The notes under the pieces are model-generated. The model had not been told where the DNA came from. It worked only from the letters and a program-made list of their open reading frames with translations, and did not search any database. Positions 1 to 18,447 of a DNA stretch of 64,000 bases are shown here, one piece after another; position 1 is the first letter of the stretch, and each line of letters opens with the position of its first letter. This DNA comes from Candidatus Limnocylindrales bacterium (lineage in GTDB: Bacteria > Desulfobacterota > Binatia > UBA1149 > CAITLU01). The stretch lies in the NCBI GenBank assembly GCA_035571835.1, contig DATNBU010000041.1, positions 11,955 to 75,954 of the forward strand, read 5' to 3'. Made by a program: the position numbers and the translations under genes.

Positions 1-1766
1 ACCCGCGCTCGCTCGTCACTCCCACCACCGACAAGGCGGTGGCGTTCAATGTCGCGTGGTACTCGTGCATGGGACGCCAGCCGGCAACCTGCGGAGAGCT
101 GCGCGAGCTTCGCGCCCTCGGCGGCCGACTGCTTCGCGGCGACGGCCTGCCGGGCGCCGGATGGGAGTTCAGCGGCGACCATTCGAGCAGCTCATGGTCG
201 ATCTCGTCGGACCAGTACAACTCGCTGTGGTTTCGATGGGGACTGCTCGAGCGGCCGGCCGACTATGACGAGCTCGTCGCCGAGCGCTACGGAACCCCGC
301 TCAGCTCGGTGCGCAATCCGTACCCGCTCCCCGGCGAAGACCCGAACCTGACCGACGGCGGCTCCGGCCAGCTGCCGATGGCGCTTACGCAGACGCGCAA
401 TGCCGACGGATCGTGGACCGGCAACGTCGGCATCACATGCTCGGTCTGCCACAGCGGTCAGGTCGGAAATGCGGCCGACGGACCGGGCCTCGGACCTCTC
501 AACGGCAACAACGGCCTGACCGACGTCAACCTGCTGCTCACCGAGATGGGAAGCGCGAGCAACGGATTCACGGTGATGAGCCTGAATCGCGTACGCGGCA
601 GCGGCAACATCACCAACTTCCAGCTGTTCGGACTGCTCACATTGTTCGACTTCAACACGACGCTGCCGGGAATGGTCGAGAATCCGGGTCTGTGGACGTC
701 GGGCAACACCGGAAGCGAAGACCCGCCGAACTGGTGGAACCTCGGACACCGGCCCGCGAAGTTCTACGACGCCGGCATGAGCAGCGATTCCACGCGCATC
801 GAGCTGTCGTGGTACATGCCGGGCGCGGCGACGCCGAGCTTCCAGGAAGGCTACGACTGGATCAACGACCACGACTACGCAGCCAACACGTGGATGCTGA
901 GCCTGACGTCGCCCGTCTACCCGATGGCGATCGACGAACGGCTCGCGAAAAAGGGCGCGAAGCTGTTTCACCGGCTCAACCTGTGGGACTCGAAGCGCGC
1001 CAATCCGGTGCCGCGTCCAGAAGGCGGCAACGGCTCATGCGCAAGCTGTCACGGCGCCTATTCGCCGCGCTTCGCAAAGAAGCCGCAGTTCCTCGCAACG
1101 CCGCTGCTGACGGGAATCGCGGCCAACGTGACGCCGATCGACATCATCAACACCGACCCGGCAAGAATGGACGGCAACAGCGAAGCCGTCGAAGGCGCGG
1201 CCGCCGCGAGCTGGTTCACGTACTACGGGCAGGACGGCTGCGCGGAGAAATACAACCTCATCGGATACCTGGCGCAGCCGCTGTACGGCGTGTGGGCCTC
1301 GGCGCCGTATTTCCACAACGGCTCGGTGCCGGACGTGTGGGGCGTTCTCAAGTCGTCGGACCGTCCGCTGTTCTGGCGCCGCCTGTCGAAGCCCGCGCGC
1401 GACGGAGTCGTCATGGGCTACGAGAGCGATCTCGCGCGCGGATACGACCCGGTAAAGCTCGGGTGGAAGTACGACGACCTCGCGTGCGGGTCGCCTGAGG
1501 TTACGCCGTATCTCGAGTGCGATCCGGCCGATCCGTTTGCGACGCCGCTCCTCGAATCGTGGATGTCGACGATGTTCGCGAACGGGTCCTTGTCCTGGAA
1601 CATCCTCGGCACGGTGCTCGCGCCGACGCTGACGAACCAGCAAATCGAAGACCGCAAAATCTACAACACCCGCATGTACAGCCAGTCGAACAGCGGGCAC
1701 GAATTCACCGACGTGCTGACGGACGACGAACGCACCGCCATCATCGAATACCTCAAGACACTGTGA
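1..1766 (+). CDS. di-heme c-type cytochrome, 5'-truncated at the window edge (two CxxCH motifs: CSVCH, CASCH)
   Basis: The reading frame is open from nt 3 with no upstream stop, so the gene continues beyond the window. Two canonical heme c attachment motifs are present. ORF 39..1766. Confidence 0.6.
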   Translation, partial: PRSLVTPTTDKAVAFNVAWYSCMGRQPATCGELRELRALGGRLLRGDGLPGAGWEFSGDHSSSSWSISSDQYNSLWFRWGLLERPADYDELVAERYGTPLSSVRNPYPLPGEDPNLTDGGSGQLPMALTQTRNADGSWTGNVGITCSVCHSGQVGNAADGPGLGPLNGNNGLTDVNLLLTEMGSASNGFTVMSLNRVRGSGNITNFQLFGLLTLFDFNTTLPGMVENPGLWTSGNTGSEDPPNWWNLGHRPAKFYDAGMSSDSTRIELSWYMPGAATPSFQEGYDWINDHDYAANTWMLSLTSPVYPMAIDERLAKKGAKLFHRLNLWDSKRANPVPRPEGGNGSCASCHGAYSPRFAKKPQFLATPLLTGIAANVTPIDIINTDPARMDGNSEAVEGAAAASWFTYYGQDGCAEKYNLIGYLAQPLYGVWASAPYFHNGSVPDVWGVLKSSDRPLFWRRLSKPARDGVVMGYESDLARGYDPVKLGWKYDDLACGSPEVTPYLECDPADPFATPLLESWMSTMFANGSLSWNILGTVLAPTLTNQQIEDRKIYNTRMYSQSNSGHEFTDVLTDDERTAIIEYLKTL

Positions 1767-1771
1767 AGCCA

Positions 1772-4294
1772 ATGAAAACAACATCCGCTCTGTTTACGAT
1801 TCTTCTGTCTGTTCTGGTCCACGCGTCCGCAGGCTACGCCTGCGATCCGGCTGCGGAGCCGAACAGGAGCGACATCGCCAGCGCCCGTGCGCTGATCGCG
1901 GCAAATTGCGACTGCTTCAACTCGACGCGACGCGATTACGCGCGCTGCGCGAAAGAGCAGGCGACTGCGGCATTGTCCGACAGCACGTGCCTTTCGTACG
2001 TGAAGCGGTGTTCCGCCCAGTCGACCTGCGGACGGCCCGGCGCGGTCACGTGCTGCGTGGCGACATCATCCGGGACGAAGTGCAAGATCGCGAGGGACAC
2101 GGCGCGATGCGATGCGCTCGAGGGAACGGTGAGCGACTGCTCGAGCGTCTGCGACGGCTCTCCGCTGCCGGGTAGCGGCCCGAGCTGTTCGGCGAGTGAA
2201 GTCCGCGTGCTGTCGAACCGCGCCGATCTCGTCAGCAGCGGCGATGCGCTGGTCGAGGTCGTGATCCCCGCGGGCATCGATCCATCGACGGTTACGGTCG
2301 ATGTCGACGGCGACGACGTCACCTCGAGTTTCGCGATGCGGCCGAACGGACGCTACGTGGGACTGCTGACCAACCTCGCGCTCGGACCGAACGTCGTGAC
2401 GGCGCGCATGCCCGGCGCCGAGCGCGAGCTCACGATCACCAATCATCCGAGCGGTGGGCCGATCCTTTCCGGTCCCCAGATCCAGCCGTGGATCTGCCAG
2501 GCAGATGCGGTCGACGCGCAGTGCAACCAGCCGGCAAGCTACACGTACCTCTACAAGTCGAGCGATCCGACCAAGCAGGGATTGCAGTCGTACGACCCGG
2601 AGAGCCCTCCGACCGACGTCGCCGATACGACCACCGACCGCGGCGTGACGGTGCCGTTCATCGTCCGTCTCGAGACCGGCTATCAGGACCGCGACCAGTA
2701 CCAGATCGCGACGCTGTTCCAGCCGAACCAGCCGTGGACGCCGTGGGAACCGCAGCCGCAGTGGAATCACAAGCTGCTGATCATGCACGGCGCGTCGTGC
2801 GGCGTGGAACATCAGACCGGATCAGCTCCTGGCGTTACGACTGGTGCGACCGTCGCCGATACCGCCGGCACCGCCGAGTACGCGCTCGGTCTCGGCTACG
2901 CGACGATGTCGACGGCTCTCGACAACAGCGGCCACAACTGCAACGTCGCCGTGCAGGCCGAATCGCTGATCATGGCGAGGGAACGTCTCGTCGAAGAGCT
3001 CGGCGAACTCGACTACACGATCGGTGCCGGCTGCTCGGGCGGCTCGCTCGCTATCCAGTGGATCGGCAATGCGTATCCGGGATTCTACCAGGGCATTCTG
3101 CCGAGCTGCTCGTTCCCCGACGCGTGGGGCACCGCAACGCAGTTCCTCGATTACCACCTGACGCTTGCGTACTTCACCGATCCGTCGAAGTGGGGACTCG
3201 GCATCGCATGGCTGCCGTCGCAGATGGCGGACGTGCAGGGACACATCTCGATCGTCAACTCGGAAGTCAGCGATGCGGCGCAGTTCCACGTGGCGGTTCC
3301 GACCGATCCGTGCGCCGGCGTCAGCGACGCCGAGCGCTACGATCCCGTGACCAATCCGGGCGGCGTACGCTGCGACATCCAGGACGCCGCCATCAGCATT
3401 CTCGGCCCGCGTCCGCCGGCCGACTGGTCTGCGAACGAGCAGGCGCTCGGCCACGGATTCGCCGGGGTTCCGATCGACAACGTCGGCGTGCAGTACGGGC
3501 TGACGGCGCTGCAGCAGTCGCTGATCACGCCGTCGCAGTTCGTCGACCTCAACGAGAAGATCGGCGGGCTCGACGTCGACGTCAATCCGATTCCGCAGCG
3601 CATCGCCGCGACCAGGCCGGCGCTTGCCAACGCGTACCGCAGCGGCCTGATCAACGAGGGCAACAACCTCGACCAGACCGCGATCATCGACTGCCGCGGA
3701 CCCGATCCCGGCGCGTTCCACGATGCGTATCGTGCGTTCGCGATGCGGGCGCGGCTCGATCGCGAGCACGGCACGCACGCCAACCAGCTGATCTGGGAAG
3801 GGCCGGTCGCGCTGTTCGCCGACGCGCAGTGCGTGAAGAACAGCTTCATCGCGATGGACCGGTGGCTGACGGCCGTCAAGGCGGACAGCACCGACAAGCC
3901 GCTCGCACAGAAGATCATCGACGACAAGCCCGCCGACCTTACCGATCGCTGCTACGACGGTGCAGGCGACAAGCTGACCGACGATCTTTGCGGCGAGGCG
4001 GTCGTGACGACGTTCCGCACGCCGCGCATGGTGGCCGGCGACGCGCTGACGACCGACACCAACAAGTGCCAGCTTAAGCCGCTCAGTCGGAGCGACAACT
4101 ACGGGCCGATCCCGTTCATGGATTCGGAATGGGCACGGCTGCAGGCGGTGTTCCCGGACGGCGTCTGCGACTTCTCGAAGCCCGGCGTCGATCAGCAGGG
4201 AACGATTCCGTGGCAGACGTATCAGGACGACGCCGCCGGCGGCGCGGTCATCTATGGTGGAAGACCGCTCGGTGATGCGCCGGTGTCGGAGTAG
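1772..4294 (+). CDS. secreted protein with N-terminal Cys-rich region and alpha/beta-hydrolase-like core (GAGCSGGS motif, tannase/feruloyl-esterase-like)
   Basis: Signal-peptide-like start MKTTSALFTILLSVLVHASAGYA at ATG 1772, six nt after the upstream stop. The upstream in-frame M at 1517 overlaps gene 1 and was rejected. The G-C-S-G-G nucleophile-elbow-like motif is seen in the translation. Confidence 0.55.
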   Translation: MKTTSALFTILLSVLVHASAGYACDPAAEPNRSDIASARALIAANCDCFNSTRRDYARCAKEQATAALSDSTCLSYVKRCSAQSTCGRPGAVTCCVATSSGTKCKIARDTARCDALEGTVSDCSSVCDGSPLPGSGPSCSASEVRVLSNRADLVSSGDALVEVVIPAGIDPSTVTVDVDGDDVTSSFAMRPNGRYVGLLTNLALGPNVVTARMPGAERELTITNHPSGGPILSGPQIQPWICQADAVDAQCNQPASYTYLYKSSDPTKQGLQSYDPESPPTDVADTTTDRGVTVPFIVRLETGYQDRDQYQIATLFQPNQPWTPWEPQPQWNHKLLIMHGASCGVEHQTGSAPGVTTGATVADTAGTAEYALGLGYATMSTALDNSGHNCNVAVQAESLIMARERLVEELGELDYTIGAGCSGGSLAIQWIGNAYPGFYQGILPSCSFPDAWGTATQFLDYHLTLAYFTDPSKWGLGIAWLPSQMADVQGHISIVNSEVSDAAQFHVAVPTDPCAGVSDAERYDPVTNPGGVRCDIQDAAISILGPRPPADWSANEQALGHGFAGVPIDNVGVQYGLTALQQSLITPSQFVDLNEKIGGLDVDVNPIPQRIAATRPALANAYRSGLINEGNNLDQTAIIDCRGPDPGAFHDAYRAFAMRARLDREHGTHANQLIWEGPVALFADAQCVKNSFIAMDRWLTAVKADSTDKPLAQKIIDDKPADLTDRCYDGAGDKLTDDLCGEAVVTTFRTPRMVAGDALTTDTNKCQLKPLSRSDNYGPIPFMDSEWARLQAVFPDGVCDFSKPGVDQQGTIPWQTYQDDAAGGAVIYGGRPLGDAPVSE

Positions 4295-6740: not shown

Positions 6741-6843
6741 AGCGGAATCACGCGGCCGTGCGATCGTGAGCAGCATCGGGAACGCGGGAAGAAGACGGCG
6801 CGGGACGGCGTTGTCCGCCCCGTCCGCGTTGTCCACGTTGCCC

Positions 6844-8850
6844 ATGCGCGCTGCATGCATCGCAGCCGCGATGAACCTCATCCTGATCACGGGCCTGCCG
6901 GGGAAAGCTGCAGCCGCAGCCGCTTCCAGAAGCGCAACGGCTTCCACGAGCGCAACTTCTGCAAAAGATCCGCAGCATACCGAGGCGCAGCGCCTTCCGG
7001 GTTTCCAGGGGCGTACGCTCGACGGCAAGACGCTGTCGACCGCATCGTTCTCCGGCAAGCGGCTGCTGCTGCTGTGCTTCAATCCCGGCATCGCGCAGTC
7101 GGCGGCGTATGCGCAGGCGCTTGCGAACCTTGCGCCCGAGCGAAGCCGCAACAACTTCGAGATCGCCGGCGTTGCGATGGGGCTCGATCCCGCGGACGCG
7201 CGCGCATTCGCCGCGAAGCTCAAGCTCGACTTCCCGATCTTCGACGACTCGGACGCGACGATCGCGGGCGGCCTCGGGCTGCAGGCTCCGGTGGTCCTGC
7301 TTGGCGTCGACGCCGAAGGTCGCGTCGGCATGGCGATGCTCGGCTTCGAGCACGAGCAGGAGATCCCGGCGGTTGCCGTTGAAGATCACGTCCGCGAGTT
7401 CCTGCGGCTTCCTCGCGCTGACACCGTAACCGGCGGCGCGCTCGATCCGCGGCCGAAAGCGCCGCCGTTCGATGCCGAGCGTCTGAGCGGAGGCGACCGC
7501 TTCCGGCTATCCGATCTGTCGGGCAAGCCGGTGGCGCTGGTGTTTTTCATGCCGACCTGTCCGCACTGCCGCGATGCGCTGCGTTTCTTCAAGGGCGAGC
7601 TTGCGCGCATGCCCGAGAAGAATCGTCCGGTGCTGGTCGGAGTATCGATGGACAGCCGCGCGTACTCGGTCGAATCCACGCTTGCGGAAGAGAAGCTCGA
7701 CTTCTTTCCGGTGCTGCTCGATGCGGACCGCAGGATTGCCTCGGCCTACGGTTCGTTCGCGGGAGTTCCCGACATCGTCCTGATCGATGCGACGGGGCGT
7801 ATCGCGTTCCGGAGCAAAGGATGGAGCGAGGAGCCCGACGCAAGACTGATGCGGATGCGCCTTGCGCGCCTGGCCGGCGCCGAAGTGCCGATGCTGCTCG
7901 ACTCGCACGGATTCAGCGGCAACGACACGTGCGCCATCTGCCATACGATGGAAGCGGCCGCGTGGAAGTACACCGAACACTCGGTCGCATTCGACACGCT
8001 CGTGACGCGCGGAGCAGATCACGATCCGAAATGCGTCGGCTGCCACGTCGTCGGCTTCGGCCAGGCCGGCGGGTACTCCGAAGCCGCGCGCCAGCAGAAC
8101 CTCGAGAACGTCGGATGCGAGACGTGCCACGGCAAGGGCGGCGGACATCTGGACGCGCGATCGAAAACCGCCGGCGGGGCGGCGGCGGTCGACTATCGGT
8201 CCGCCTGCAAAGGCTGTCACGACCCGCAGCATTCGCTCGGCTTCGAGTACGAGAAGTTCCTGCCGAAAGTCTCGCACGCGGCCATCGCCGCGCTCAGCGA
8301 CGCGGAGCGAGAGAAGCTGATCGCCGGACGAAACCGTCCGCGTGACCTGCTGCCGACGGGGTCGGCCGTCGTCGGCTCATCGGCGTGCAAGACCTGCCAC
8401 GAGCATGAATACTTCCTGTGGTCGACGACGGCCCACGCGCGCTCGGTCGAAAGCCTCCGAAAGGAGCGCAAGGAATCGAAGGCCGAGTGTCTTCGCTGTC
8501 ACGTGACGGCCTACGGGCGCCCCGGCGGTTTTCCCGACGGCGAGCCGGTGCGTGCGCACGAGGATCTCGCACGCGTCGGTTGCGAGTCCTGCCACGGCGC
8601 GGGGGCCGAGCACGTGAAGAGCGGCGGCAAGCAGCTTGCCGGCATCGTAACGCTCGGCGACAAGTGCGACTCGTGCGTGATCCTGCAGATCTGCGGCGGG
8701 TGTCACGACGACGCGAACGATCCCGACTTCCGCTTCAACGTGACCCGCAAGATCGATCTCCAGCACCACGGGCGGGCGCCTGCGGTGCCGGAACGATCCG
8801 TTGATACGACGCGCGATACGAGCAGCGCCGCGACCAGCGCCGGCAACTAG
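6844..8850 (+). CDS. fusion protein: two thioredoxin/TlpA-like domains (second with CPHC) plus octaheme c-type cytochrome (8 CxxCH)
   Basis: The translation shows MPTCPHCRDALRFF...VPDIVLIDATGRIAF, a redoxin fold. Eight heme motifs follow: CAICH, CVGCH, CETCH, CKGCH, CKTCH, CLRCH, CESCH, CGGCH. Signal-like start MRAACIAAAMNLILITGLPG at 6844; an alternative start is 6766. Confidence 0.75.
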   Translation: MRAACIAAAMNLILITGLPGKAAAAAASRSATASTSATSAKDPQHTEAQRLPGFQGRTLDGKTLSTASFSGKRLLLLCFNPGIAQSAAYAQALANLAPERSRNNFEIAGVAMGLDPADARAFAAKLKLDFPIFDDSDATIAGGLGLQAPVVLLGVDAEGRVGMAMLGFEHEQEIPAVAVEDHVREFLRLPRADTVTGGALDPRPKAPPFDAERLSGGDRFRLSDLSGKPVALVFFMPTCPHCRDALRFFKGELARMPEKNRPVLVGVSMDSRAYSVESTLAEEKLDFFPVLLDADRRIASAYGSFAGVPDIVLIDATGRIAFRSKGWSEEPDARLMRMRLARLAGAEVPMLLDSHGFSGNDTCAICHTMEAAAWKYTEHSVAFDTLVTRGADHDPKCVGCHVVGFGQAGGYSEAARQQNLENVGCETCHGKGGGHLDARSKTAGGAAAVDYRSACKGCHDPQHSLGFEYEKFLPKVSHAAIAALSDAEREKLIAGRNRPRDLLPTGSAVVGSSACKTCHEHEYFLWSTTAHARSVESLRKERKESKAECLRCHVTAYGRPGGFPDGEPVRAHEDLARVGCESCHGAGAEHVKSGGKQLAGIVTLGDKCDSCVILQICGGCHDDANDPDFRFNVTRKIDLQHHGRAPAVPERSVDTTRDTSSAATSAGN

Positions 8851-9815
8851 GCCGGCGCAGGGCACGACAGCGTCAGCGCACCGCCGACGGCTTTCTTCAG
8901 GATCGCAAGCGCATCGGATGCTGCAACCGAGCCGTTGGCGTTGACGTCGCACACCGTCACGTCACAGACTTTGGCCGAGACCGCGGACTGCAGCGCGAAC
9001 AGCGCGTCGGTTGCGGTCACCGTGCCGGAATCGTTCGGATCTCCGCACGCGAGCGCATCGCATCCTGCGTCGCAGTATTCGCCCGGAGCCCAGGTCGTAT
9101 CGCCGTCGTCGCAGGTCTCTCCCGCAGACGTGATGCCGTCGCCGCATGCGACAGCCACTGCGCAGTCGGCGTCGTCCTGGTCGTAGACACCGTCGCCGTC
9201 GTTGTCGAGACCGAACAGACCGAACCTGTTCTCGTTGCCGGGTGATGCGGCTGCGTTGCACGGATCGACGGGCTTGCTCGCATGCGCGGAGTCGGGCGTG
9301 AAGTAATACGGAGGCTTTTCGTCTTCGCCGGCCGGCGCGCCGTCGCTGTGGCAGTCGGCGCAGTCGCTGATGCCGGCGTTCGCATGATGCAGCCGCAGGC
9401 CGGCGCCCATTCCGCAGTTGGCCGGATCGATCGTCGTGCTGTTGCCGGTGACGCACTCGCCGGTCGCATCGGCCGCGCGCCCGTGACAGCCGAGGCACGA
9501 GACCGGGCTGTATCCGGATATGCCGGCCGAAAGGCCGATGTAGACCGGGCTTCGCGGAGTTCCCGCCGGCGGCTGGTGGCAGACGTTGCACGTACCGCTG
9601 CCCATGAACGCGCTGTGGCCGGTCATGAGATTCGTGCCCCAGCTCGTTCCGTCCGAATCGGAGACGTACGTGCCGGAGTTGAACTCGCCGTGGCAGCCGG
9701 CGCAGCCCGACCACGTCGCATAGGCATGGGCGGACGGAACCCACGTCGCGAACGCCAGATGAGCGACCACTACGGCCGCGCCGACACGAAGGCAGTTCTC
9801 TAAATTCGTTTTCAT
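8847..9815 (-). CDS. secreted tetraheme c-type cytochrome with C-terminal two-repeat dockerin-like (EF-hand-type Ca-binding) module
   Basis: Signal peptide MKTNLENCLRVGAAVVVAHLAFA with RBS GGGAGAG. Four heme motifs: CAGCH, CNVCH, CLGCH, CADCH. C-terminal loops DPNDSGTVTATDALFALQSAV and DVNANGSVAASDALAILKKAVG match the 12-residue dockerin Ca loop at positions 1, 3, 5 and 12, each followed by an L-rich helix. Confidence 0.75.
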   Translation of the reverse strand: MKTNLENCLRVGAAVVVAHLAFATWVPSAHAYATWSGCAGCHGEFNSGTYVSDSDGTSWGTNLMTGHSAFMGSGTCNVCHQPPAGTPRSPVYIGLSAGISGYSPVSCLGCHGRAADATGECVTGNSTTIDPANCGMGAGLRLHHANAGISDCADCHSDGAPAGEDEKPPYYFTPDSAHASKPVDPCNAAASPGNENRFGLFGLDNDGDGVYDQDDADCAVAVACGDGITSAGETCDDGDTTWAPGEYCDAGCDALACGDPNDSGTVTATDALFALQSAVSAKVCDVTVCDVNANGSVAASDALAILKKAVGGALTLSCPAPA

Positions 9816-10012
9816 TTCCGCTCTCCCTTGCTTCCTGTTCGCCGTCGCATCTGCATCAGACATCGCCTGCGGGAGCCCGATCCCGGGCCGCCGACCTTGC
9901 GTATGCACGGTCCATTCCACGTTGCCGACCGGCTGCTCTCGGACGACATGCTTCTTGCAGGAAAGGAGTTGGCAGATACGGCCCTTCGAAGGCCGTGAAA
10001 GGAGGGCCTGTC

Positions 10013-12487
10013 ATGAAAGCTGTCGCAGAGCGGAGTCCGGGAGCGGTTTTCTCAGCAGTTTTTGTCTTTCTGCTCGCATGGATTGCGGTGCCGCAGGCTT
10101 TTGCGGCGAAGGATGACTGTTCCCAGCCTGTCAGCGGCGGCGACGGCCCCGTGACGAGCGACTGCCTTCATATCCTGTCGACCGCCGTCGGTTCCCAGAT
10201 CTGCGAGACTTCCTGCGTGTGCGATGTCAACGGCAGTAATTCGATCACGTCGATTGACGCATTGATGTGCCTGCGGGCCGCCGTCGACCTCGAGGTCGAC
10301 ATGAATTGTCCATGCGGTGACACGACGACCACGACCATCACCACGACGACGACCACGACCATCGAAGTAACGACGACCACGACCACCACGACGACCACCA
10401 CGCTGCCGGTGGCCGGCGTGATGAACGAGGCGTGCCCGGTCTGCCACGGCGATGGGCGGGTCATCGACGTCGCGTCGTATCACCCCGGCCTGCAGACGAT
10501 TCCGGATATCAACGCCAGCATCGACAGTGTCGCGATCGTCGTGGACGACGTGGCCCACACCGCCAGGCTGACCGTCAACTTCACCGTGACCGATCCCGAT
10601 GGCGATCCGATCCCGGACCTCGGCGCGCCTTCGCCGACGCAGGCCACGCGTTTCGCGTACCTGCGTTTCGCGCTGAGCGAGCTCGAGCCGGCCGAAGACC
10701 TGAGCGGTGATCCGGACAGCTGGGTCAGCTACACGACCGGCGACCGGACGCCCGCCAACCTGACCGACCACGGCGACGGCACCTACACGTACCTGCTCGC
10801 AACCAATCTCTACACCCTCTACATCCCGTCGCTGCGGCACCGGCTGCTGATGACTGTGTCGGGCGCAATCGTAGCGCAGTCGAAGAACGTGACGTACGAC
10901 TTCGTGCCCGAGCAGCTGCCGGGTCCGTTCGTGTTCGACACCAGCCGCGACATCGTGACGACGACCGCGTGCAACAGCTGCCACGGCCGCCTCGGCAGCA
11001 CTCTTGGCGATGCGAGCTTCCACGGCGGCAGCCGCTACACGACCGAGGCCTGCGCGACGTGCCACACGACGTCGCTGGTCGGCGGCAGCGCGGAGTTCGC
11101 GCCGATGGTGCACAAGATCCACGCGGCCCAGAACATCGAAGGGCTCGCGGATTTCTCCGAGGTCACGTACCCGCAGGACGTGCGCAACTGTGCCACGTGC
11201 CACGCCGGCACCGACGGCTCCAACTGGTACACGCGGCCGTCGCAGACGGCATGCGGCTCGTGCCACGCCGATGTCGATTTCGTAACCGGCGAGAATCACG
11301 ACGGCGGTCCGCAGACCAATGCGGCGTGCGTCGACTGTCACTCCGAGGACGCCATCAAGGAAGTGCACGTCACCGACATTTCTACGCCGCATAACCCCGA
11401 CGTTCCGGAAGGCGCGGTGAGCTTCGAGTACGTGCTCGAAGAAGTGACCGTGAACGACAGCAGGCAGGCGGTCGTACGCTTCCACATCAACGCCGACGGC
11501 GAGCCTGTCGATCTCAGCACCATCCCGCCTGCCGGATTCAGCGGCGGTCCGGGCTTCCTCGTCGCCTATGCGCTGCCGCAGGACGGCGTCGAAGTGCCGG
11601 TCGATTACAACAACCTCGGCCGCAGCGCAGGACAGCCGGCGACCGTCACGCTCGCAAGCCTGTCCGGCAAGCTGACCGGTACTCCCGAGAGCTACACCGC
11701 GGTGCTCGACGCCGCTCCGTTCCCGTCCGGCGCGACGATGCGCGCGGTCGCGCTGCAGGGCTACTTCACGCAGCTGATGGGCAATCCCGCCAGCACGACG
11801 GACGATCTCGCGCGCCACACGCCGTCGGTCGTCCAGCCGGTCACCGGCGATCCGGTGCGACGTCAGGTGGTCGAAGTGGCCAAGTGCCTCAACTGCCACG
11901 AGAGCCTCGAGCTGCACGGCGGCAATCGCGTCAACAACGTCCAGGTGTGCGTCACGTGCCACGACCCGAACCTGAGCAGCAGCGGTCGCACCGTGAACCC
12001 GGCCGACGTGACGCAGGAACAGAAGGATGCGCTCGCAGCGGCCGGCCACGACCCGAACGATCCGCTCAGCTGGCCGGAGACATCGATGCAGCTGAAGAAC
12101 CTCGTGCACGGGCTGCACTCGTCCGGAATGCGCAACTTCGATTACGACTTCGTCCGCAATCGAAACGGCGCGTCGTACTTCAACTGGAGCGAAGTGACGT
12201 TCCCGGGCATCCTCAGCAACTGCGAAACCTGTCATTTGCCGGGGACGTACGGCGTCGACCTGCCGGACGGAGTACTGGTGAGCACGAACGTGACCACGAG
12301 CGGCCCGAATGCGACGAGGGCGAGCATCCTCGCGGCTCGTGACAGCGTGCCGAACGATACCGACGAGATCCTGAGCCCGACGGCCGGTCCGTGTTCGATG
12401 TGCCATGACAGCGTGCCGGCAGCGGCCCACATGGAACAGAACGGCGGCGTGATCGGCAAGACGCGCCTCGCTGCTCTGGGCAACTGA
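10013..12487 (+). CDS. secreted decaheme c-type cytochrome with N-terminal dockerin-like module and poly-Thr linker
   Basis: RBS AAGGAGG lies 6 nt upstream of ATG 10013. The protein starts with a signal peptide. A dockerin-like loop DVNGSNSITSIDALMCLRAAV follows, then the linker TTTTITTTTTTTIEVTTTTTTTTTTT. Ten CxxCH motifs are present: CPVCH, CNSCH, CATCH twice, CGSCH, CVDCH, CLNCH, CVTCH, CETCH, CSMCH. Confidence 0.8.
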   Translation: MKAVAERSPGAVFSAVFVFLLAWIAVPQAFAAKDDCSQPVSGGDGPVTSDCLHILSTAVGSQICETSCVCDVNGSNSITSIDALMCLRAAVDLEVDMNCPCGDTTTTTITTTTTTTIEVTTTTTTTTTTTLPVAGVMNEACPVCHGDGRVIDVASYHPGLQTIPDINASIDSVAIVVDDVAHTARLTVNFTVTDPDGDPIPDLGAPSPTQATRFAYLRFALSELEPAEDLSGDPDSWVSYTTGDRTPANLTDHGDGTYTYLLATNLYTLYIPSLRHRLLMTVSGAIVAQSKNVTYDFVPEQLPGPFVFDTSRDIVTTTACNSCHGRLGSTLGDASFHGGSRYTTEACATCHTTSLVGGSAEFAPMVHKIHAAQNIEGLADFSEVTYPQDVRNCATCHAGTDGSNWYTRPSQTACGSCHADVDFVTGENHDGGPQTNAACVDCHSEDAIKEVHVTDISTPHNPDVPEGAVSFEYVLEEVTVNDSRQAVVRFHINADGEPVDLSTIPPAGFSGGPGFLVAYALPQDGVEVPVDYNNLGRSAGQPATVTLASLSGKLTGTPESYTAVLDAAPFPSGATMRAVALQGYFTQLMGNPASTTDDLARHTPSVVQPVTGDPVRRQVVEVAKCLNCHESLELHGGNRVNNVQVCVTCHDPNLSSSGRTVNPADVTQEQKDALAAAGHDPNDPLSWPETSMQLKNLVHGLHSSGMRNFDYDFVRNRNGASYFNWSEVTFPGILSNCETCHLPGTYGVDLPDGVLVSTNVTTSGPNATRASILAARDSVPNDTDEILSPTAGPCSMCHDSVPAAAHMEQNGGVIGKTRLAALGN

Positions 12488-12492
12488 ACGAA

Positions 12493-12537
12493 CGCAGGGA
12501 ACCTCGCAGCCATGAAGCGGCTGCGAGGTTCCCTGCG
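12493..12537 (+). terminator. strong stem-loop (19-bp perfect stem CGCAGGGAACCTCGCAGCC / GGCTGCGAGGTTCCCTGCG, 5-nt loop) 6 nt after the decaheme stop
   Basis: Perfect inverted repeat read in the sequence. No canonical U-tract follows (GTCTTTCACC), so it may act as a rho-dependent or processing signal rather than an intrinsic terminator. Confidence 0.55.
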
Positions 12538-12895
12538 TCGATCCGCCGCGTCTTTCACCGTCGAAAGCGCTTCACCTGCAACTTTCTGCTTTGCGCGACG
12601 GTCGCGCATCAAAAAAGCATTGCCGATTTCGCGACAATAGAGACATCTCCCCGAGTTTGCTGAGGTCGCAACGCGTCAGCGCCTCGCATTGCGAAGCGTT
12701 TCGACCAACCATTCCGTTCCCAGTTTCAAAAAATTCCGGTGCGCAGGATCGCCCGGCGGGCGTGAAGCGCTTGTTCTACCGGCGCCACGGCTGTACCCGT
12801 CCTCCTCAAGCGCACGGCGGGGGAGGGGAACGGTGCGTATCTGCGGACTCATTGGTTCGCAGATCCCGCCTGTCGCTTCACCTAGGGAGGTTCCG

Positions 12896-14920
12896 ATGCG
12901 CTCGAGACTGACGCTCTGCGTGCTATTTGCCGCCACGCTCTGGTATCCGCTGCAGGCTGCGGCTACCTGCGGAGACGGCATACTCGAACCGCTCAACGGT
13001 GAGCAGTGCGACGTACCCGGCGGCACCTTCTGCTGCATCGGCTGCCAGTTTCGAGGGTCGGAGACGCTGTGTCGCGCTGCGACCGGCGCCTGCGACGTCG
13101 AAGAATACTGCGCAGGCAACAGCACGGCGTGCCCGGCCAACAGCGTCAAGCCGAGCAGCACGATCTGTCGCGAGTCTCCGGGATCGGTCGCATCGCAGGT
13201 CGAATCCACACGCGGGCCGAGTGATCCGGACACCACCGGAACGGTCTCGGTCGGCGCGTCGTCGAGCTTCCAGTTCAAAATCGGAACCGGCGGCCTGCTG
13301 CGGACAGTTACCGCGGTGCCGTCGAGCTCGCTGCAGACGTTCGTCGACGACATCAATGCGCTGAAGAACAGCGCACCGCTTTACCAGAGGGTATCGGCCA
13401 ACCTGTTCAATGCCGGGAGCAACTGCCAGGCCGATGCGCCGGGCAACAACTCCTGTCTGTCGAACTCGGATTGCTCGGCCAACGTCGACTGCGCCACCAC
13501 GTACAAGGTCCTTCTGCTTGCCGAGACTCGCGGTGCGGACTCGATCATCGTCCAGACCGACCAGACGCAGCTCAAGTTCGCGACCCGCATCGCCGGCGCC
13601 GATGACCCCTGCAACGCGACCGAACGGTGCAACGGAACCAGCGCGAGCTGTCCCGCCGATTCGTTCCAGAATTCGTCGTTCGTCTGCCGTCCGTCCGCCG
13701 GCTCGTGCGACGTCCAGGAGAACTGTCCCGGCAACGCTTCGCTCCTCTGTCCGGCCGACACGGTCCTGGCGTCCACTACCGTGTGCCGATCGTCCGCCGG
13801 TGTCTGCGATCCGGCGGAGCTCTGCACGGGCAGTAACGGCGTTTGTCCGACCGATTCGAAGAGCACGGCGATCTGCCGGGCTTCGGGCGGCGGCTGTGAT
13901 CCGGCCGAGGTATGCGACGGCATCGCCGATGCGTGTCCTGCAACTGCCCTCAGCAGCAACGGCACCGTGTGCCGTGCACCTGCGGGAGGCTGCGACGCCG
14001 CGGAAACCTGCGACGGCGCAAGCGTCGTGTGCCCGGCCGACGTCAACCTGCCCGCGAGCACGCTTTGCCGCGCCGATGTCGGCCAGTGCGACGTTGCCGA
14101 CTTCTGCACCGGCACCACCAGGGATTGCCCGGCCGACAACTTCGAGCCCGACGGCACGACCTGCGACGACGCCGATGTCTGCACCGTCAACGACCAATGC
14201 ATCGGCGGCGTCTGCGTCGTCGATCCCCAGCATTGCGGCGACGGCGTGCTGCAGCTGACCTGCACCGAGGAGTGCGACGACGGCAACGTCGACGACGTCG
14301 ACGGATGCTCGTCGACGTGTGAGGCCGAGCCCGGGCTCGGCTGCCCGTACTTCCCGCTGTCCGGATGCCGCCAGTCGACGGTGCCGGGCAAGTCGCGAGT
14401 CGACATTCGCGACGAAGAGAAAATCAGCGGACTCAAGTTCCAGTGGCGCTGGAAAAAGGGAGCGGCGACTACCGAAGCTGACTTCGGCGATCCGCTCACC
14501 GATGCGCCGGCCGGAACCAGCTACACGCTGTGTCTGTACGATGCGGTCGGTCTGCTCGCGCAGGCCACCGCGCCTGCCGGCGGCGAATGCGGCGTCAAGG
14601 AACCGGGACCGTGCTGGACCGGGCGCCCGTCGCAGGGCTTCAACTATCTCGATTCCGACCAGTCGATCGAGCCGGACGGTGTCAAAAGCGTCGATCTCGT
14701 CGCGGGTCCGGATGGCAGGGCGTACATCGGGCTCAAGGCAGAAGGCGGACTGTTTCCGTTCCCGTCCAACGGCGGGTTCGGAGGCATCGGCGACCTGACC
14801 GGAATTGCATCGCCGCTCGTCGTGCAGCTCCAGAACACCAGCGGGCTCTGCTTCGAGGCAACCTACAGCGCGCCGTTCAAGCGGCAGCTTCCCACTCGCT
14901 TCCAGGCAAGGGCGAACTGA
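12896..14920 (+). CDS. secreted cysteine-rich repeat protein (Myxococcus-type Cys-rich / disintegrin-like repeats)
   Basis: RBS AGGGAGG precedes ATG 12896, followed by signal peptide MRSRLTLCVLFAATLWYPLQAAA. At least 10 tandem protein repeats of the form CRxxxGxCDxxExCxGxxxxCPAD. Confidence 0.7.
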   Translation: MRSRLTLCVLFAATLWYPLQAAATCGDGILEPLNGEQCDVPGGTFCCIGCQFRGSETLCRAATGACDVEEYCAGNSTACPANSVKPSSTICRESPGSVASQVESTRGPSDPDTTGTVSVGASSSFQFKIGTGGLLRTVTAVPSSSLQTFVDDINALKNSAPLYQRVSANLFNAGSNCQADAPGNNSCLSNSDCSANVDCATTYKVLLLAETRGADSIIVQTDQTQLKFATRIAGADDPCNATERCNGTSASCPADSFQNSSFVCRPSAGSCDVQENCPGNASLLCPADTVLASTTVCRSSAGVCDPAELCTGSNGVCPTDSKSTAICRASGGGCDPAEVCDGIADACPATALSSNGTVCRAPAGGCDAAETCDGASVVCPADVNLPASTLCRADVGQCDVADFCTGTTRDCPADNFEPDGTTCDDADVCTVNDQCIGGVCVVDPQHCGDGVLQLTCTEECDDGNVDDVDGCSSTCEAEPGLGCPYFPLSGCRQSTVPGKSRVDIRDEEKISGLKFQWRWKKGAATTEADFGDPLTDAPAGTSYTLCLYDAVGLLAQATAPAGGECGVKEPGPCWTGRPSQGFNYLDSDQSIEPDGVKSVDLVAGPDGRAYIGLKAEGGLFPFPSNGGFGGIGDLTGIASPLVVQLQNTSGLCFEATYSAPFKRQLPTRFQARAN

Positions 14921-15022
14921 CCGATGCGGCGCGCGATGGAAGCAGCCGCGAGTGCGGCGACGAATCGGATGGGGAACTTCACCGGAAACTCTGCCGGCAA
15001 TTCTTCAATGAGGAACTCTGCG

Positions 15023-16105
15023 ATGCGCAAGACGAGAACGATTCTTCAGCGATGGACGGTCGGCATGGTCGTCATGGCCATGGCCGTTGCCGGGCCTGCG
15101 GCCGCAGCGCCGGTCGATGATGCCAGGGCCCTGATCAACGCGATCGTCGCCACGGGCGATACCGAGCGTGCGTGGCAACTGACGCAGGTCGTGGATTCGA
15201 TGTCGGAGGCCGAGCTCGAGACGTTCGCGAATTCCGGCATCCGCGAGCTGACGGGCCTGATGAACCAGCAACGCGAAGCAATCGAAGCGGCGCGCGACAT
15301 CGGGTTCCGGCTGCCGGCCGAGCCCCCGTCGCCGGTCGTCAGAAACCACAACGACGATTTCCCGCTGTTCACCGACTACACGCCCGACTCGACTAGCTGT
15401 CCGAACTCGCCGGACCAGACCTCGATCGGAACCATCGTCGCGATCCGGTCGACGCTGGTCGGTGCGCAGGCCGCCTACAAGATCGCCAAGGCGCTCTACG
15501 ACGACACCAATCCGGTCTGTCACCAGCTCGTCGTTGCAATCGGCGTCGGCAGCAACCCGCAGACAGCCGTGTGCATCGGCCTCGGCATTGCGGAGACGGT
15601 CGTGCACGTGGCCTTCGATGTCACGGCGAAAGCTCTCGAGCTGATCGATTTCTGCGACGACGAAGTCGACTACGCGAAGATCCGCGCGACCTTCCACGAC
15701 CTCGAGTTCATTCACAATCAGCTGACCACGCACGATACGGACGAGAAGCTTCAGGTCACCACGCACGACGACGAGGAGCAGGCCTTGCTCGACGACCTGC
15801 TCGCGCGCCTCGCACGCATCGAGGGCAAGCTCGATCTTCTCATGAAGAGCCAGCTCGAGATTGCGATGGACCGCCGCGGCGGACGCTCACGTCCGAGTGT
15901 GTTCTACGAGGACCGGCTCGACGAGCTGTGCGGCTATGCGCAGGAAGCCGTCGACGATCTTCCCGACGTCTACCTGGTCGCCGACCAGTGCCAGGGGCTG
16001 ATCAACGAAGGACTTTCTCTCAAACTGACGGACCCCAAGCTGGCAGCGGACACGTGTGTCGCGGCCTTCGTACGAGCCACCGCCGGCTCGTCGACGCTGC
16101 AGTAG
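15023..16105 (+). CDS. secreted hypothetical protein, paralog A (conserved C-terminus RPSVFYEDRLDELC...DDLP...TDPK.AAD.C)
   Basis: Signal peptide MRKTRTILQRWTVGMVVMAMAVAGPAAAAP with RBS GAGGA. The paralog downstream shares the acidic HD/E-rich helical segment and the C-terminal block. Confidence 0.65.
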   Translation: MRKTRTILQRWTVGMVVMAMAVAGPAAAAPVDDARALINAIVATGDTERAWQLTQVVDSMSEAELETFANSGIRELTGLMNQQREAIEAARDIGFRLPAEPPSPVVRNHNDDFPLFTDYTPDSTSCPNSPDQTSIGTIVAIRSTLVGAQAAYKIAKALYDDTNPVCHQLVVAIGVGSNPQTAVCIGLGIAETVVHVAFDVTAKALELIDFCDDEVDYAKIRATFHDLEFIHNQLTTHDTDEKLQVTTHDDEEQALLDDLLARLARIEGKLDLLMKSQLEIAMDRRGGRSRPSVFYEDRLDELCGYAQEAVDDLPDVYLVADQCQGLINEGLSLKLTDPKLAADTCVAAFVRATAGSSTLQ

Positions 16106-16171
16106 CGTGAACGACATGATGCAGATGATGTCTCCGCGAACGATGGGTTCGAATACCGGTGATGTTCCGCA

Positions 16172-16207
16172 GAGGAATCCCAAGAGGAATCCCACGAGGA
16201 ATCCAAT
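16172..16207 (+). repeat. 3 x 12-nt tandem repeat GAGGAATCCCAA/CAC/AAT ending in the start codon of paralog B
   Basis: Read directly: gaggaatcccaa gaggaatcccac gaggaatccaATG. Each unit contains an SD-like GAGGA. Confidence 0.7.
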
Positions 16208-17300
16208 GATCCGTAAAGTCCTGCGACGAACGACAGGGATGTTTCTTCTCACGCTTGCCGTATTGGCCGTAGCGCTGCCGCAAGCGGCTGTTGCGTCCGA
16301 CCGCGACGAGACACTGGAGCTGGCCGATACCATCCGCGACCTCGGATATTCCGGCGAAGCCGCGCAGATCGAGCAGCTGGTGGCGGGAATGTCCGATTCC
16401 GAGCTCCAGCTTCTCGGGGATGCCGGCTTCTTCCAGATCTCTTCCAAGCTGAAAGCGTACCAGGTGGCGAAAGAGCGTGCGGACGCGCTCGAGTTCATCT
16501 CCGTCGAGCCCCAGGGCGCAAGCCAGCGTGCGATCCTGTCCGACTACGATCTGTCGACCTTCCCCGCGGCGGTCTATCCGCCGCAGGATTCGACCTGCGT
16601 CAACGCGGTCGGGACGGTCAGCACCGCGGCAGTCAAGGTCGGGCTCAAGGCTACCGTTTTCACGCTGAGGGAAGCGCTGACGGCCGCCGACGGTGCGCAG
16701 CGGGCGGCGATGGCCGGCTGCAACATCATCGTCATCGCGATCGGCATCGGCGGCAACGCCGCGTCGGCCTGCGTCGTCTCAGCCATCGTTCTCAGCGTGG
16801 CCGACGCTGCCCTGTCGGTCGGCGAAATCTTCATCGACAACCTGATCTTCTGCGACGAACAGGTGCATTTTGCGGAATCCGAAGCCTCCGCTGTTCGCGC
16901 GGAGTACCTGAGCCACCAGCTCGAGCTTCACGATCTCGAGCTCGGCGAGCAGATCGCCACGCACGACGTGGAAGTCCAGGCCAAGGTGCAGCAGGCGATC
17001 GCGCGCGCGGCCAGCATCGAAGGCAAGATCGATCTCGGCCTGAAGACCCAGCTCGAAGTCGCGATGGATCGCAAGACCGTCACGCGTCCGAGCATCTTCT
17101 ACGAGGATCGGCTCGATGAGCTCTGCGATCTCGCGCAGGAGGCGATCGACGATCTGCCGGCCACCTACATCCTGGCAACGAGGGCGCAGACCCTCGTCAA
17201 CGACGGAATGGCGTTCAAGATCACCGATCCGAAGCGCGCGGCCGACGAGTGCATTCGTGGATTCAGCATGGCAACCACGAAGTCGACCGAACACAACTAG
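16206..17300 (+). CDS. secreted hypothetical protein, paralog B of 15023..16105
   Basis: Signal peptide MIRKVLRRTTGMFLLTLAVLAVALPQAAVA. C-terminal block RPSIFYEDRLDELCDLAQEAIDDLPATYILA...TDPKRAADECI is shared with paralog A. The upstream part of ORF 16056 has low GC3 and is judged non-coding. Confidence 0.65.
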   Translation: MIRKVLRRTTGMFLLTLAVLAVALPQAAVASDRDETLELADTIRDLGYSGEAAQIEQLVAGMSDSELQLLGDAGFFQISSKLKAYQVAKERADALEFISVEPQGASQRAILSDYDLSTFPAAVYPPQDSTCVNAVGTVSTAAVKVGLKATVFTLREALTAADGAQRAAMAGCNIIVIAIGIGGNAASACVVSAIVLSVADAALSVGEIFIDNLIFCDEQVHFAESEASAVRAEYLSHQLELHDLELGEQIATHDVEVQAKVQQAIARAASIEGKIDLGLKTQLEVAMDRKTVTRPSIFYEDRLDELCDLAQEAIDDLPATYILATRAQTLVNDGMAFKITDPKRAADECIRGFSMATTKSTEHN

Positions 17301-17331
17301 GCGGCCGTAGCTCGCCGACTCGGGCTTCCTG

Positions 17332-18447
17332 GTGACGGGAGTGGATATCTCGAAGGCTGCCGTGCTGTCGCGAAGCGAAGCCGCGGCTTCGAGCGCGTCG
17401 TGGCGGAGCGCGGTTGCCGCCGGGCGCGGCTTCATCGCTTCGGGACTCTACGACAGCGTCTTCTTCCTGCTGGCACCGGTGATCGCGCTCGCGATCGTTG
17501 CCGTGGTCGCGGTGCTGCCGCCGGCGAAGGGGATTCCCGCTGTGTTCCGCGAGCCGGCCGGGCCGGCGATCTTCGTGATGCTGGTCCTTTCGCAGGCGCA
17601 CGCGGTCGCGGTGTTCTTTCGAAGCCACGGCAATCGCGCGATCTTCGTGCGTCACCGCTTCGCATTCGTGGTCGTGCCGGTCCTCCTTTTTGCCGGGCTC
17701 ATGACTTCGAACTGGGTGATGGCCGGTGCACTGGTGCTGGCTCCGTTCTGGGCCGTCTACCACCTCGGCATGCAGAGCTTCGGGCTCGGCCGCATGTACG
17801 ACGTGCGCTGGGGCAACTCGCCGGAGACGGGCCGCACGCTGGACTACTGGCTGCAGCAGCTCTTCAACCTCGCGCCGTTCCTTGCCGGTTGGAGCCTTCT
17901 GCCGCACCTGCAGTCGCTGCGGATCTTCGAACGCGTCGGCTGGCATGCGCCGGCGGCGTGGCTCGATGCGCATCGTTCGATCGAGGGTGCGCTCGCCGGC
18001 GTGTTCCTCGTGGCCGGACCGGTCTTCCTCGCGTACTACGTTTATTCGTACCGCAGGTTCATGCAGCAGGGCTACAGGCTCTGCCCGCAGAAGGTCGTGC
18101 TGCTGGCGACGACGGGCGTCGTCTCGGTGGTTTCCTGGGGATTCCTCACGTCGTGGAAGGCGGTGTTCGTGATGAACCTTTTCCACAGCGTGCAGTATTT
18201 CGCGCTGGTCTGGTGGGCCGAGCGCAAGAACCTCGGCCGCGTGAGCCGCCTGCAGCGCGTCTCGTTCGGCACGCCGGTCCTGCTCGTCGCGTTCCTCGTG
18301 ATCACGCTGTCGCTCGGAACTTTTCTCCAGGCGTACGGTCGCGACTACACGGTGATGCGCTGGACCGCGTCGCTCGCGCTCGTGATCTCGCTGATGCACT
18401 ACTGGTACGATGGATTCGTGTGGTCGGTGCGGCGCCGCGAGGTCTGA
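17332..18447 (+). CDS. polytopic integral membrane protein, hypothetical (GTG start)
   Basis: Multiple hydrophobic helices and high GC3. The overlapping alternative-frame ORF 17400.. was rejected over this interval. Confidence 0.55.
   Translation: MTGVDISKAAVLSRSEAAASSASWRSAVAAGRGFIASGLYDSVFFLLAPVIALAIVAVVAVLPPAKGIPAVFREPAGPAIFVMLVLSQAHAVAVFFRSHGNRAIFVRHRFAFVVVPVLLFAGLMTSNWVMAGALVLAPFWAVYHLGMQSFGLGRMYDVRWGNSPETGRTLDYWLQQLFNLAPFLAGWSLLPHLQSLRIFERVGWHAPAAWLDAHRSIEGALAGVFLVAGPVFLAYYVYSYRRFMQQGYRLCPQKVVLLATTGVVSVVSWGFLTSWKAVFVMNLFHSVQYFALVWWAERKNLGRVSRLQRVSFGTPVLLVAFLVITLSLGTFLQAYGRDYTVMRWTASLALVISLMHYWYDGFVWSVRRREV

Follow-up and report, generated by a model that had tools for sequence, protein, structure and literature searches.

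A secreted redoxin–octaheme cytochrome fusion as a tentative thiol:heme oxidoreductase of Binatia and Myxococcota

The present analysis concerns one gene in a 64,000-nucleotide stretch of DNA, referred to here as the window (contig DATNBU010000041.1 of GenBank assembly GCA_035571835.1, positions 11,955 to 75,954, labelled Candidatus Limnocylindrales bacterium and placed in the Binatia by GTDB). The gene encodes a secreted protein in which two redoxin-like domains are covalently fused to an eight-heme cytochrome (Table 1), and it may tentatively be read, at a rough probability of 0.4, as specifying a self-contained periplasmic thiol:cytochrome (heme) oxidoreductase that probably oxidises thiols. 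A relay between thiols and hemes is proposed because three elements are strictly conserved, namely a CxxC active site tuned as in DsbA, an unbroken module of eight hemes, and a cysteine (or cysteine pair) next to the final heme motif. In the proposed scheme, Sec-dependent export and heme attachment would yield a mature protein of four parts, of which the cysteine-less thioredoxin (Trx)-fold domain 1 may bind substrate or act as a scaffold, as do the b domains of protein disulfide isomerase (PDI), domain 2 would combine a TlpA fold with DsbA chemistry (C-P-H-C together with Val-Pro), two c554-like modules would form an eight-heme wire, and C611, in most cases accompanied by C608, stands beside its last heme-binding motif. 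Electrons would be relayed between substrate thiols or disulfide and C239/C242, between these and C608/C611, and thence between the hemes and an external partner, with a heme-adjacent or possibly heme-ligating cysteine at C608/C611 splitting the two-electron exchange into two one-electron steps. The oxidative direction appears likelier, such that substrate dithiols would be oxidised and their electrons would leave through the hemes for an acceptor in the periplasm or the respiratory chain; the protein would then do with hemes what DsbA and DsbB do together.

Architecture of the fusion protein

The frame at 6844–8850 comprises 668 codons with zero internal stops on translation, and its GC content of 0.81 at third codon positions, in a window of 65% GC, marks it as coding. 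An identical protein is held in NCBI (HXC53061.1, 659 amino acids) and in IMG (668 amino acids). Among 5.8 billion proteins searched there were 466 matches, and of the best 120 of these, 118 are full-length (at least 600 residues; range 620–733) and 2 are shorter fragments. All 118 carry the same redoxin and c554 Pfam combination in one open reading frame (ORF), and the single fused gene proposed in a preliminary description, which had been made from the sequence alone, is thereby upheld: a gene-model error in which the two halves belong to separate genes is ruled out by the continuous frame, the identical database protein and the 118 fused homologs. The start calls differ, with IMG choosing ATG 6844 and NCBI choosing Met10, which would cut into the h-region (hydrophobic core) of the signal peptide. 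The same frame is already open from a GTG at 6766 in the ORF list, and the true start may be either GTG 6766 or ATG 6844, the former being possible because homologs carry longer n-regions. A lipoprotein anchor was considered and rejected, as a lipobox-like string occurs in only 39 of 118 homologs and is absent from the window protein.

Domain assignment by hidden Markov model places, above Pfam gathering thresholds, AhpC-TSA/Redoxin in two stretches (best at residues 205–329) and Cytochrome_C554 in two stretches (best at 514–585), in agreement with the two N-terminal redoxin-like domains described earlier. An AlphaFold2 (AF2) model built from 118 sequences is confident as a whole (predicted local distance difference test, pLDDT, 88; predicted template modelling score, pTM, 0.85), with disorder confined to the signal peptide, the low-complexity residues 14–38 and the last ~20 residues, which suggests that the predicted inter-domain arrangement is fixed. 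Redoxin domains 1 and 2 are paralogous, with 30% identity at E = 4e-8. Domain 1 contains LLLLCFNPGIAQS at residues 74–86, the string from which loss of the CxxC had first been read, and this loss is borne out, since G82-I-A-Q85 occupies the CxxC position and no homolog in the aligned family has a cysteine pair in this domain; F79, N80 and P81 are conserved. Matches to domain 1 include thiol peroxidase and PrxQ models and PDB entry 2l5o. In the b/a arrangement of PDI, an inactive Trx-fold domain likewise stands beside an active C-x-H-C domain, which the redoxin pair resembles.

In a Foldseek search with the AF2 model, the top 40 matches to domain 2 include ResA, DsbE of Chlorobium, Etrx, the Geobacter Trx 3kcm, and DsbE and DsbF of Mycobacterium tuberculosis, at template modelling scores of 0.75–0.91 relative to the target (0.8–0.9 to ResA, with a root-mean-square deviation of ~2–3 Å). 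Domain 2 is like ResA, CcmG (DsbE) and TlpA in fold, in the position of the CxxC at a helix N-terminus, in the putative cis-Pro loop motif and in periplasmic location, and it matches them in sequence at E-values of 1e-7 to 1e-11. Across the alignment of 119 sequences, C239, H241 and C242 are invariant and position 240 is P (93) or S (24); in the AF2 model, C239 lies just before helix 240–254 and C242 in its first turn. P309 of the loop opposite is invariant, and V308 is at least 90% conserved in the homolog alignment. By its fold, its CxxC at a helix start and its invariant loop proline, domain 2 is thus a TlpA/ResA/CcmG-like thioredoxin. However, both its active-site environment and its NCBIfam scores set it apart from the ResA/CcmG apocytochrome reductases. 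Those enzymes carry CEPC, CPPC or CVPC, whereas alignment with ResA places CPHC against CEPC, Thr238 against Trp73 and Ala245 against Glu80, so that equivalents of Trp73 and Glu80 are missing. The scores fall below cutoff for ResA (NF002854, 47.4 against 170), for DsbE (TIGR00385, 13.4 against 123) and for TlpA, and among ResA entries the best match is the engineered CPHC variant 3c71. A cysteine-less duplicate that precedes the domain and eight covalently fused hemes are further differences. The preliminary description had credited the domain with CPHC and a typical TlpA/ResA signature, of which the CPHC and the fold stand, while the active site is DsbA-like.

With E. coli DsbA, domain 2 shares the CPHC active site and, putatively, the Val-cisPro, and DsbA, which carries both, has a potential of about -90 to -125 mV (PMC8405906). 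CPHC also raises the potential of other Trx scaffolds, as a change from CMPC to CPHC adds 66 mV and AfTrx1, with CPHC, reaches -32 mV (PMC4395160). The protein is not a DsbA by domain content, however, as the helical insertion domain (PF01323) is missing, Pfam DSBA gives no match and the structural neighbours are of ResA type. The active site reads CPHCH, formally a CxxCH, in 75 of 119 family members and CPHCR in the window protein. A ninth heme site there was rejected, since the fifth residue is not conserved (H, Q or R among homologs; R in the window); heme counts based on CxxCH are inflated by the CPHCH variant, to nine for such proteins.

In the C-terminal half, the eight CxxCH motifs noted earlier are all present, at residues 363, 397, 425, 455, 515, 549, 580 and 617. 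Each is conserved in 117–118 of 118 homologs, and the 16 heme cysteines show little or no variation. Modules A and B are paralogous (E = 3e-18), and the cytochrome half is, on this similarity, a c554-like tetraheme module duplicated in tandem. It falls within PF13435 (two stretches; 97.8 bits, where the cutoff is 20.8) and matches cytochrome c554 (CycA) of Nitrosomonas europaea (PDB 1bvb, E = 5e-12), with four CxxCH per module in c554-like spacing and context. It differs from CycA in its two tandem modules, in an extra CxxC in module B, in the fused redoxin domains and in a further His that follows the motif His of hemes 3 and 7 by six residues, and it is not a CycA ortholog, as it scores far below the CycA equivalog model (NCBIfam Cyt554 NF043010, 79.5 against 400). 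A C-terminal c554-like tetraheme module is also shared with the UshA-like (seleno)protein family NF041198, at 185 bits over model positions 379–518; this match, to the cytochrome part only, lies below the family cutoff of 275, and that family has another N-terminal enzyme, four hemes as against eight and no CxxC-x5-CxxCH. That NF041198 and other c554 fusions share the module shows, at the level of sequence, a reusable electron-transfer tail for periplasmic enzymes. In the close family, seven non-motif histidines are conserved for the eight hemes (H379, H435, H463 and H478 in module A; H531, H590 and H642 in module B), with N625 in module B where module A has H463.

Table 1. Features of the fusion gene and its neighbours (window positions; residue numbers counted from ATG 6844)
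Feature	Position	Strand	Basis
Whole gene: secreted redoxin-redoxin-octaheme protein, 668 aa	6844..8850	+	single open frame; database proteins of 659/668 aa; AF2 model
Sec-type signal peptide, approximate (MRAACIAAAMNLILITGLPGKAAA / A)	6844..6924	+	sequence reading; homologs with equivalent n-h-c regions ending AxA; low pLDDT
Redoxin-like domain 1, aa ~46-190, redox-inactive	6979..7413	+	Pfam, NCBIfam, alignment, paralogy to domain 2
Redoxin domain 2, aa ~199-345, TlpA/ResA fold	7438..7878	+	Pfam AhpC-TSA/Redoxin/Thioredoxin_8 aa 205-329; Foldseek; phmmer to ResA
Active site C239-P-H-C242	7558..7569	+	alignment of 119 sequences; AF2 model
V308-P309, putative Val-cis-Pro loop opposite active site	7765..7770	+	conservation; aligns with ResA cis-Pro loop
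c554-like tetraheme module A, aa 353-500, hemes 1-4	7900..8343	+	Pfam PF13435; PDB 1bvb; paralogy to B
Module A CxxCH	7930-7944, 8032-8046, 8116-8130, 8206-8220	+	
c554-like tetraheme module B, aa 505-650, hemes 5-8	8356..8793	+	Pfam; PDB match; paralogy to A
Module B CxxCH	8386-8400, 8488-8502, 8581-8595, 8692-8706	+	
C608-D-S-C611, candidate heme-adjacent or heme-ligating redox cysteines	8665..8676	+	conservation, module alignment, AF2 model
Tetraheme c3/c7-like protein with dockerin domain	8847-9920	-	
Decaheme MtrC/MtrF-like protein	9995-12487	+	
55-cysteine protein, four disintegrin repeats	12689-14920	+	
Three ORFs without Pfam matches	14924-18447		

The extra cysteine pair and a proposed thiol–heme relay

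A second cysteine pair, C608 and C611, is carried in a 7-residue insertion (D606-K-C608-D-S-C611-V-I-L-Q-I) found in module B only, directly before heme motif 8 (C617-G-G-C620-H621), with C611 standing five residues upstream of that motif (CxxC-x5-CxxCH). Both cysteines are at least 90% conserved in the close family. The AF2 model places C608 just before helix 611–617, of which C611 is the first residue, in the same geometry as C239/C242 at helix 240–254. Of 64 divergent octaheme relatives, 62 have C611 and 55 have C608, and where a single cysteine survives it is always C611; the two relatives that lack both (L037, complete, and P0265, possibly a fragment) are also devoid of any N-terminal domain. 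The CxxC-x5-CxxCH element occurs in two-redoxin, one-Trx, three-redoxin and tetratricopeptide repeat (TPR)-fused classes, and is missing from the octaheme-only relatives, the ~55 tetraheme c554 fusions (UshA-like and others) and the 10-heme propeller proteins surveyed. Relatives that have an N-domain and lack C608 keep the Trx CxHC (6 of 6), and those without Trx cysteines keep both C608 and C611 (5 of 5), a pattern of loss that a cysteine needing one partner thiol would be expected to show. The preliminary description had supposed that heme-based electron transfer might be coupled to disulfide reduction; the idea of such a coupling is strengthened by an almost universally conserved cysteine (or cysteine pair) near heme motif 8 that is confined to Trx-linked relatives, while the reductive direction is not established.

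Conceptual precedents exist at other c-type hemes. The His/Cys hemes of SoxAX, TsdA and MccSep couple two-electron S–S chemistry to one-electron heme steps, and in the polysulfide reductase MccSep a chalcogen-bridged intermediate on the heme-ligating cysteine is proposed to be reduced through the heme, which provides a structural precedent for S–S bond cleavage by a heme plus a cysteine (PMC13510729). The likeness to these proteins is in concept only (a cysteine at a c-type heme), as Cys–heme ligation is putative here and the partner is a Trx-fold CxxC rather than selenocysteine or a carrier protein, and no SoxAX, TsdA or MccSep chain appears among PDB phmmer matches at E ≤ 0.1. C611 may be considered a candidate distal heme ligand, from its conservation beside heme motif 8 in 62 of 64 relatives and from the seven spare histidines available for eight hemes in the close family.

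Several points weigh against such a relay. The C608/C611 pair could serve as a structural disulfide or bind a metal, and the complementary-loss counts (40/6/5/0) are not statistically significant, with 11 non-independent sequences among them. The argument from a missing histidine is limited to the close family, because H463 is conserved in only 43 of 64 sequences of the wider set. A linear c554 wire could place heme 8 far from the Trx domain, which in sequence runs directly into heme motif 1. DsbA-like tuning, as judged from motifs, is not universal in relatives: divergent two-redoxin proteins carry other dipeptides (CSEC, CPYC, CPRC and others), and the single-Trx sister family has Thr-Pro instead of Val-Pro. 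To our knowledge, direct electron transfer between heme and disulfide is also rare where no flavin, iron-sulfur cluster or quinone intervenes.

Within the thiol–heme relay, the oxidative direction is favoured because of the CPHC/Val-Pro signature, because disulfide formation by thiol oxidation would avoid the thermodynamically difficult (uphill) task of driving disulfide reduction from quinol-level donors, because inactive and active Trx domains are paired as in PDI, and because the TPR-fused variant suggests protein clients. The pairing and the TPR variant both fit protein substrates, by analogy. The presumed re-oxidant would be the intramolecular heme chain, in place of DsbB and quinone for DsbA or Ero1 and FAD for PDI. 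It is possible, if doubtful, that the family represents a new class of enzyme, one that makes disulfides de novo (or consumes them), in which a heme-bound or heme-adjacent cysteine takes the role that quinone has in DsbB and VKOR and flavin has in Ero1, Erv and QSOX. The characterised periplasmic disulfide systems known to us all use quinones (DsbB, VKOR), flavins or transmembrane cysteine relays (DsbD, CcdA), and a DsbA-tuned CxxC on an eight-heme wire would, if the proposal holds, be a fourth solution. Periplasmic protein-thiol redox would then be linked directly to a multiheme wire and thence to the respiratory chain, and the chemistry of cysteine or selenocysteine at c-type hemes would extend from inorganic sulfur substrates to thiol–disulfide exchange. 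The compact, one-gene design offers C239, C242, C608 and C611 as clear targets for point mutation.

Two alternatives are serious rivals. In the first, which we hold to be unlikely, electrons would flow in reverse, the hemes taking them from a low-potential periplasmic or membrane donor and reducing the CPHC disulfide; clients could be oxidised proteins, Msr or Sco/CuA-type proteins, or organic disulfides, and the protein would then provide a reducing route independent of DsbD and CcdA. Relatives with the TlpA/ResA fold are mostly reductants, a raised CxxC potential would ease reduction by hemes, and MccSep offers a case of heme-driven S–S cleavage. Mtr cytochromes of Shewanella are required for extracellular reduction of 5,5'-dithiobis(2-nitrobenzoic acid) (PMC10986466), which lends further support, as does the position of the fusion gene in the window, where it adjoins multiheme cytochromes including a decaheme MtrC-like protein. 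However, the adjoining cytochromes are not syntenic in other genomes, and CPHC with Val-Pro is the signature of an oxidase. Electron flow from quinol to disulfide is uphill on general thermodynamic grounds, and the carrier lineages, Binatia and Myxococcota, are probably largely aerobic.

In the second, which is no more probable, the catalytic centre would be the site formed by C611 (with or without C608) and its heme, acting, in the manner of TsdA, SoxAX or MccSep, on small sulfur or selenium substrates (thiosulfate, polysulfide, low-molecular-weight thiols or selenite), with the Trx domain as an auxiliary that would reset or protect the heme-associated cysteine. The periplasmic thioredoxins SoxS and SoxW are thought to serve the Sox system in such a manner. 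C611 is conserved more widely than the Trx dipeptide and even than the Trx cysteines, and five relatives with a cysteine-less N-domain keep the CxxC by heme 8. Where a lone cysteine remains, it is the second, C611, which departs from the logic of a monothiol Trx and suits a part in catalysis or as an axial ligand; further, a related c554 module is fused to the UshA-like (SoxB-superfamily-like) selenoprotein family with CxU. Against these points, PDB searches gave no similarity to TsdA, SoxA or MccSep, no sulfur-metabolism genes lie near any locus examined, and CxHC is strictly invariant in the close family, which argues for a central and not an auxiliary Trx site.

Two further readings are poorly supported, and each appears highly improbable. 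The preliminary description had considered a self-maturation module, in which a built-in ResA/CcmG-like domain would keep the protein's own CxxCH cysteines reduced for heme attachment and be idle after maturation. Among solved structures the nearest are indeed of the ResA and DsbE/CcmG type; however, the Trp before the first Cys and the Glu80 of ResA are replaced (Thr238, Ala245), the ResA and DsbE scores fall as short as given above and the dipeptide is the oxidising CPHC, all of which argues against an apocytochrome reductase of that type. One CxxC with no external reductant cannot supply 16 electrons, the adjoining 10-heme and 4-heme cytochromes do without such a domain, and the redoxin domain is rigidly integrated and strongly conserved; the C608/C611 pair would also be left unexplained. 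A heme-fed thiol peroxidase (the JGI label is "peroxiredoxin"), in which the hemes would recycle a peroxide-reducing redoxin, agrees with Pfam AhpC-TSA as the top redoxin match (91.8 bits) and with the automatic naming of many homologs as peroxiredoxins, but PF00578 also covers TlpA-like proteins, the peroxiredoxin PxxxT/SxxC motif is missing (F-F-M-P-T-C-P-H-C puts Thr238 directly beside Cys239), the position of the catalytic Arg holds the Trx-type Val308-Pro309, and the NCBIfam matches (thiol peroxidase, 28 against 140; PrxQ, 17 against 260) both lie on the cysteine-less domain 1.

Distribution and related architectures

The homologs among the best 120 matches are about 48–100% identical to the window protein, derive from metagenome-assembled genomes (MAGs) labelled Binatia, Myxococcota or "Deltaproteobacteria", and bear only the names "multiheme c-type cytochrome", "redoxin domain-containing protein" or "peroxiredoxin". 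Annotators should be aware that the "peroxiredoxin" and "multiheme cytochrome" labels are both incomplete for this family. A profile search of 1.84 billion representatives clustered at 50% identity yielded 355 at E ≤ 1e-30. The fusion, which had been called unusual, is thus shared by 118 full-length homologs and by hundreds of clusters in sequence space; the epithet remains apt for the literature, in which our searches for the fusion found no paper on the family. A search for a fusion of Sco with cytochrome c retrieved none. Solved structures gave matches to the separate domains only, and none to the whole fusion. The sequence evidence points to a widespread, uncharacterised family, present in MAGs of Binatia and Myxococcota recovered from soil and sediment. 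Each of its parts is known from elsewhere, and their combination, with the CxxC-x5-CxxCH element, may be an undescribed mode of coupling thiol–disulfide chemistry to the hemes. HXC53061.1 is itself assigned to a "Candidatus Limnocylindrales" (Chloroflexota) MAG, whereas its close relatives all come from Binatia, Myxococcota or Deltaproteobacteria MAGs, a discrepancy that points to lateral transfer or else to an error in binning or labelling.

Sister architectures were drawn from the matches listed in a scan of GTDB species genomes and from the search of representatives. They comprise one Trx domain (CPHC, CSHC or CGHC) with an octaheme half, at 440–515 amino acids (L013, L015, L016 and many representatives); a ~200-residue N-domain without cysteines with an octaheme half (L014, P0176, P0183, P0191, P0199); three redoxin-like domains with an octaheme half (P0142); an N-terminal TPR region (~400 residues of repeats) followed by redoxin and octaheme parts (P0149); and a Trx domain with a tetraheme module (L055).

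Other c554 fusions were met in the same scan. Most of the loci L017–L083 (also L056, at 7320–9422) encode a large family of 400–530 amino acids, with an N-domain of ~320 residues and a C-terminal c554-like tetraheme, hosted by Planctomycetota, Verrucomicrobiota, Armatimonadota and Myxococcota. Their probable affiliation is with NF041198, the UshA-like (seleno)protein family that PMC13188914 lists among CxU selenoproteins. A second set, in Planctomycetota (L072, L076, L080 and L084, together with a fragment, L039), comprises proteins of ~950–990 amino acids with two c554-like modules and a total of 10 CxxCH, whose middle reads by eye as YVTN-type beta-propeller-like and whose C-terminus reads as diheme peroxidase-like; they are another uncharacterised c554 fusion.

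Gene neighbourhood

Among the homolog loci compared, no neighbour gene was found to be conserved across clades; clustering of neighbouring ORFs was used qualitatively only, as opposite-strand ORFs pollute these high-GC loci. From this lack of conserved neighbours the protein seems to work as a stand-alone unit, as would be expected if the parts it needs are fused. The three Binatia-type loci (the window, L001 and P0002) all differ from one another. In the window, an SDR gene precedes the fusion gene and the tetraheme-dockerin gene converges on it; another of these loci has a SulP transporter upstream, and a third has an acetoacetate decarboxylase-family (Pfam ADC) gene. The genes at 8847–18447 of the window (Table 1) may possibly form an extracellular electron-transfer cluster adjoining the fusion gene, although the cluster is not syntenic in homolog loci. 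Neighbours of the sister family were uninformative.

In Myxococcota-type loci, the fusion gene is directly preceded on its own strand by genes for HSP70 and a small J-domain protein in 9 of 11 cases (L002–L009, L011), sometimes at a distance of only 3–4 nucleotides, and a UDG-family gene lies downstream in 10 of 11. Neither the HSP70 nor the J-protein has an export signal, and these neighbours are apparently cytoplasmic housekeeping genes within a coherent clade. Elsewhere in the window, a RoxA-like diheme cytochrome (39–1766, forward strand) is followed by a DUF6351 tannase-like protein (1517–4294, forward strand, 743 bits).

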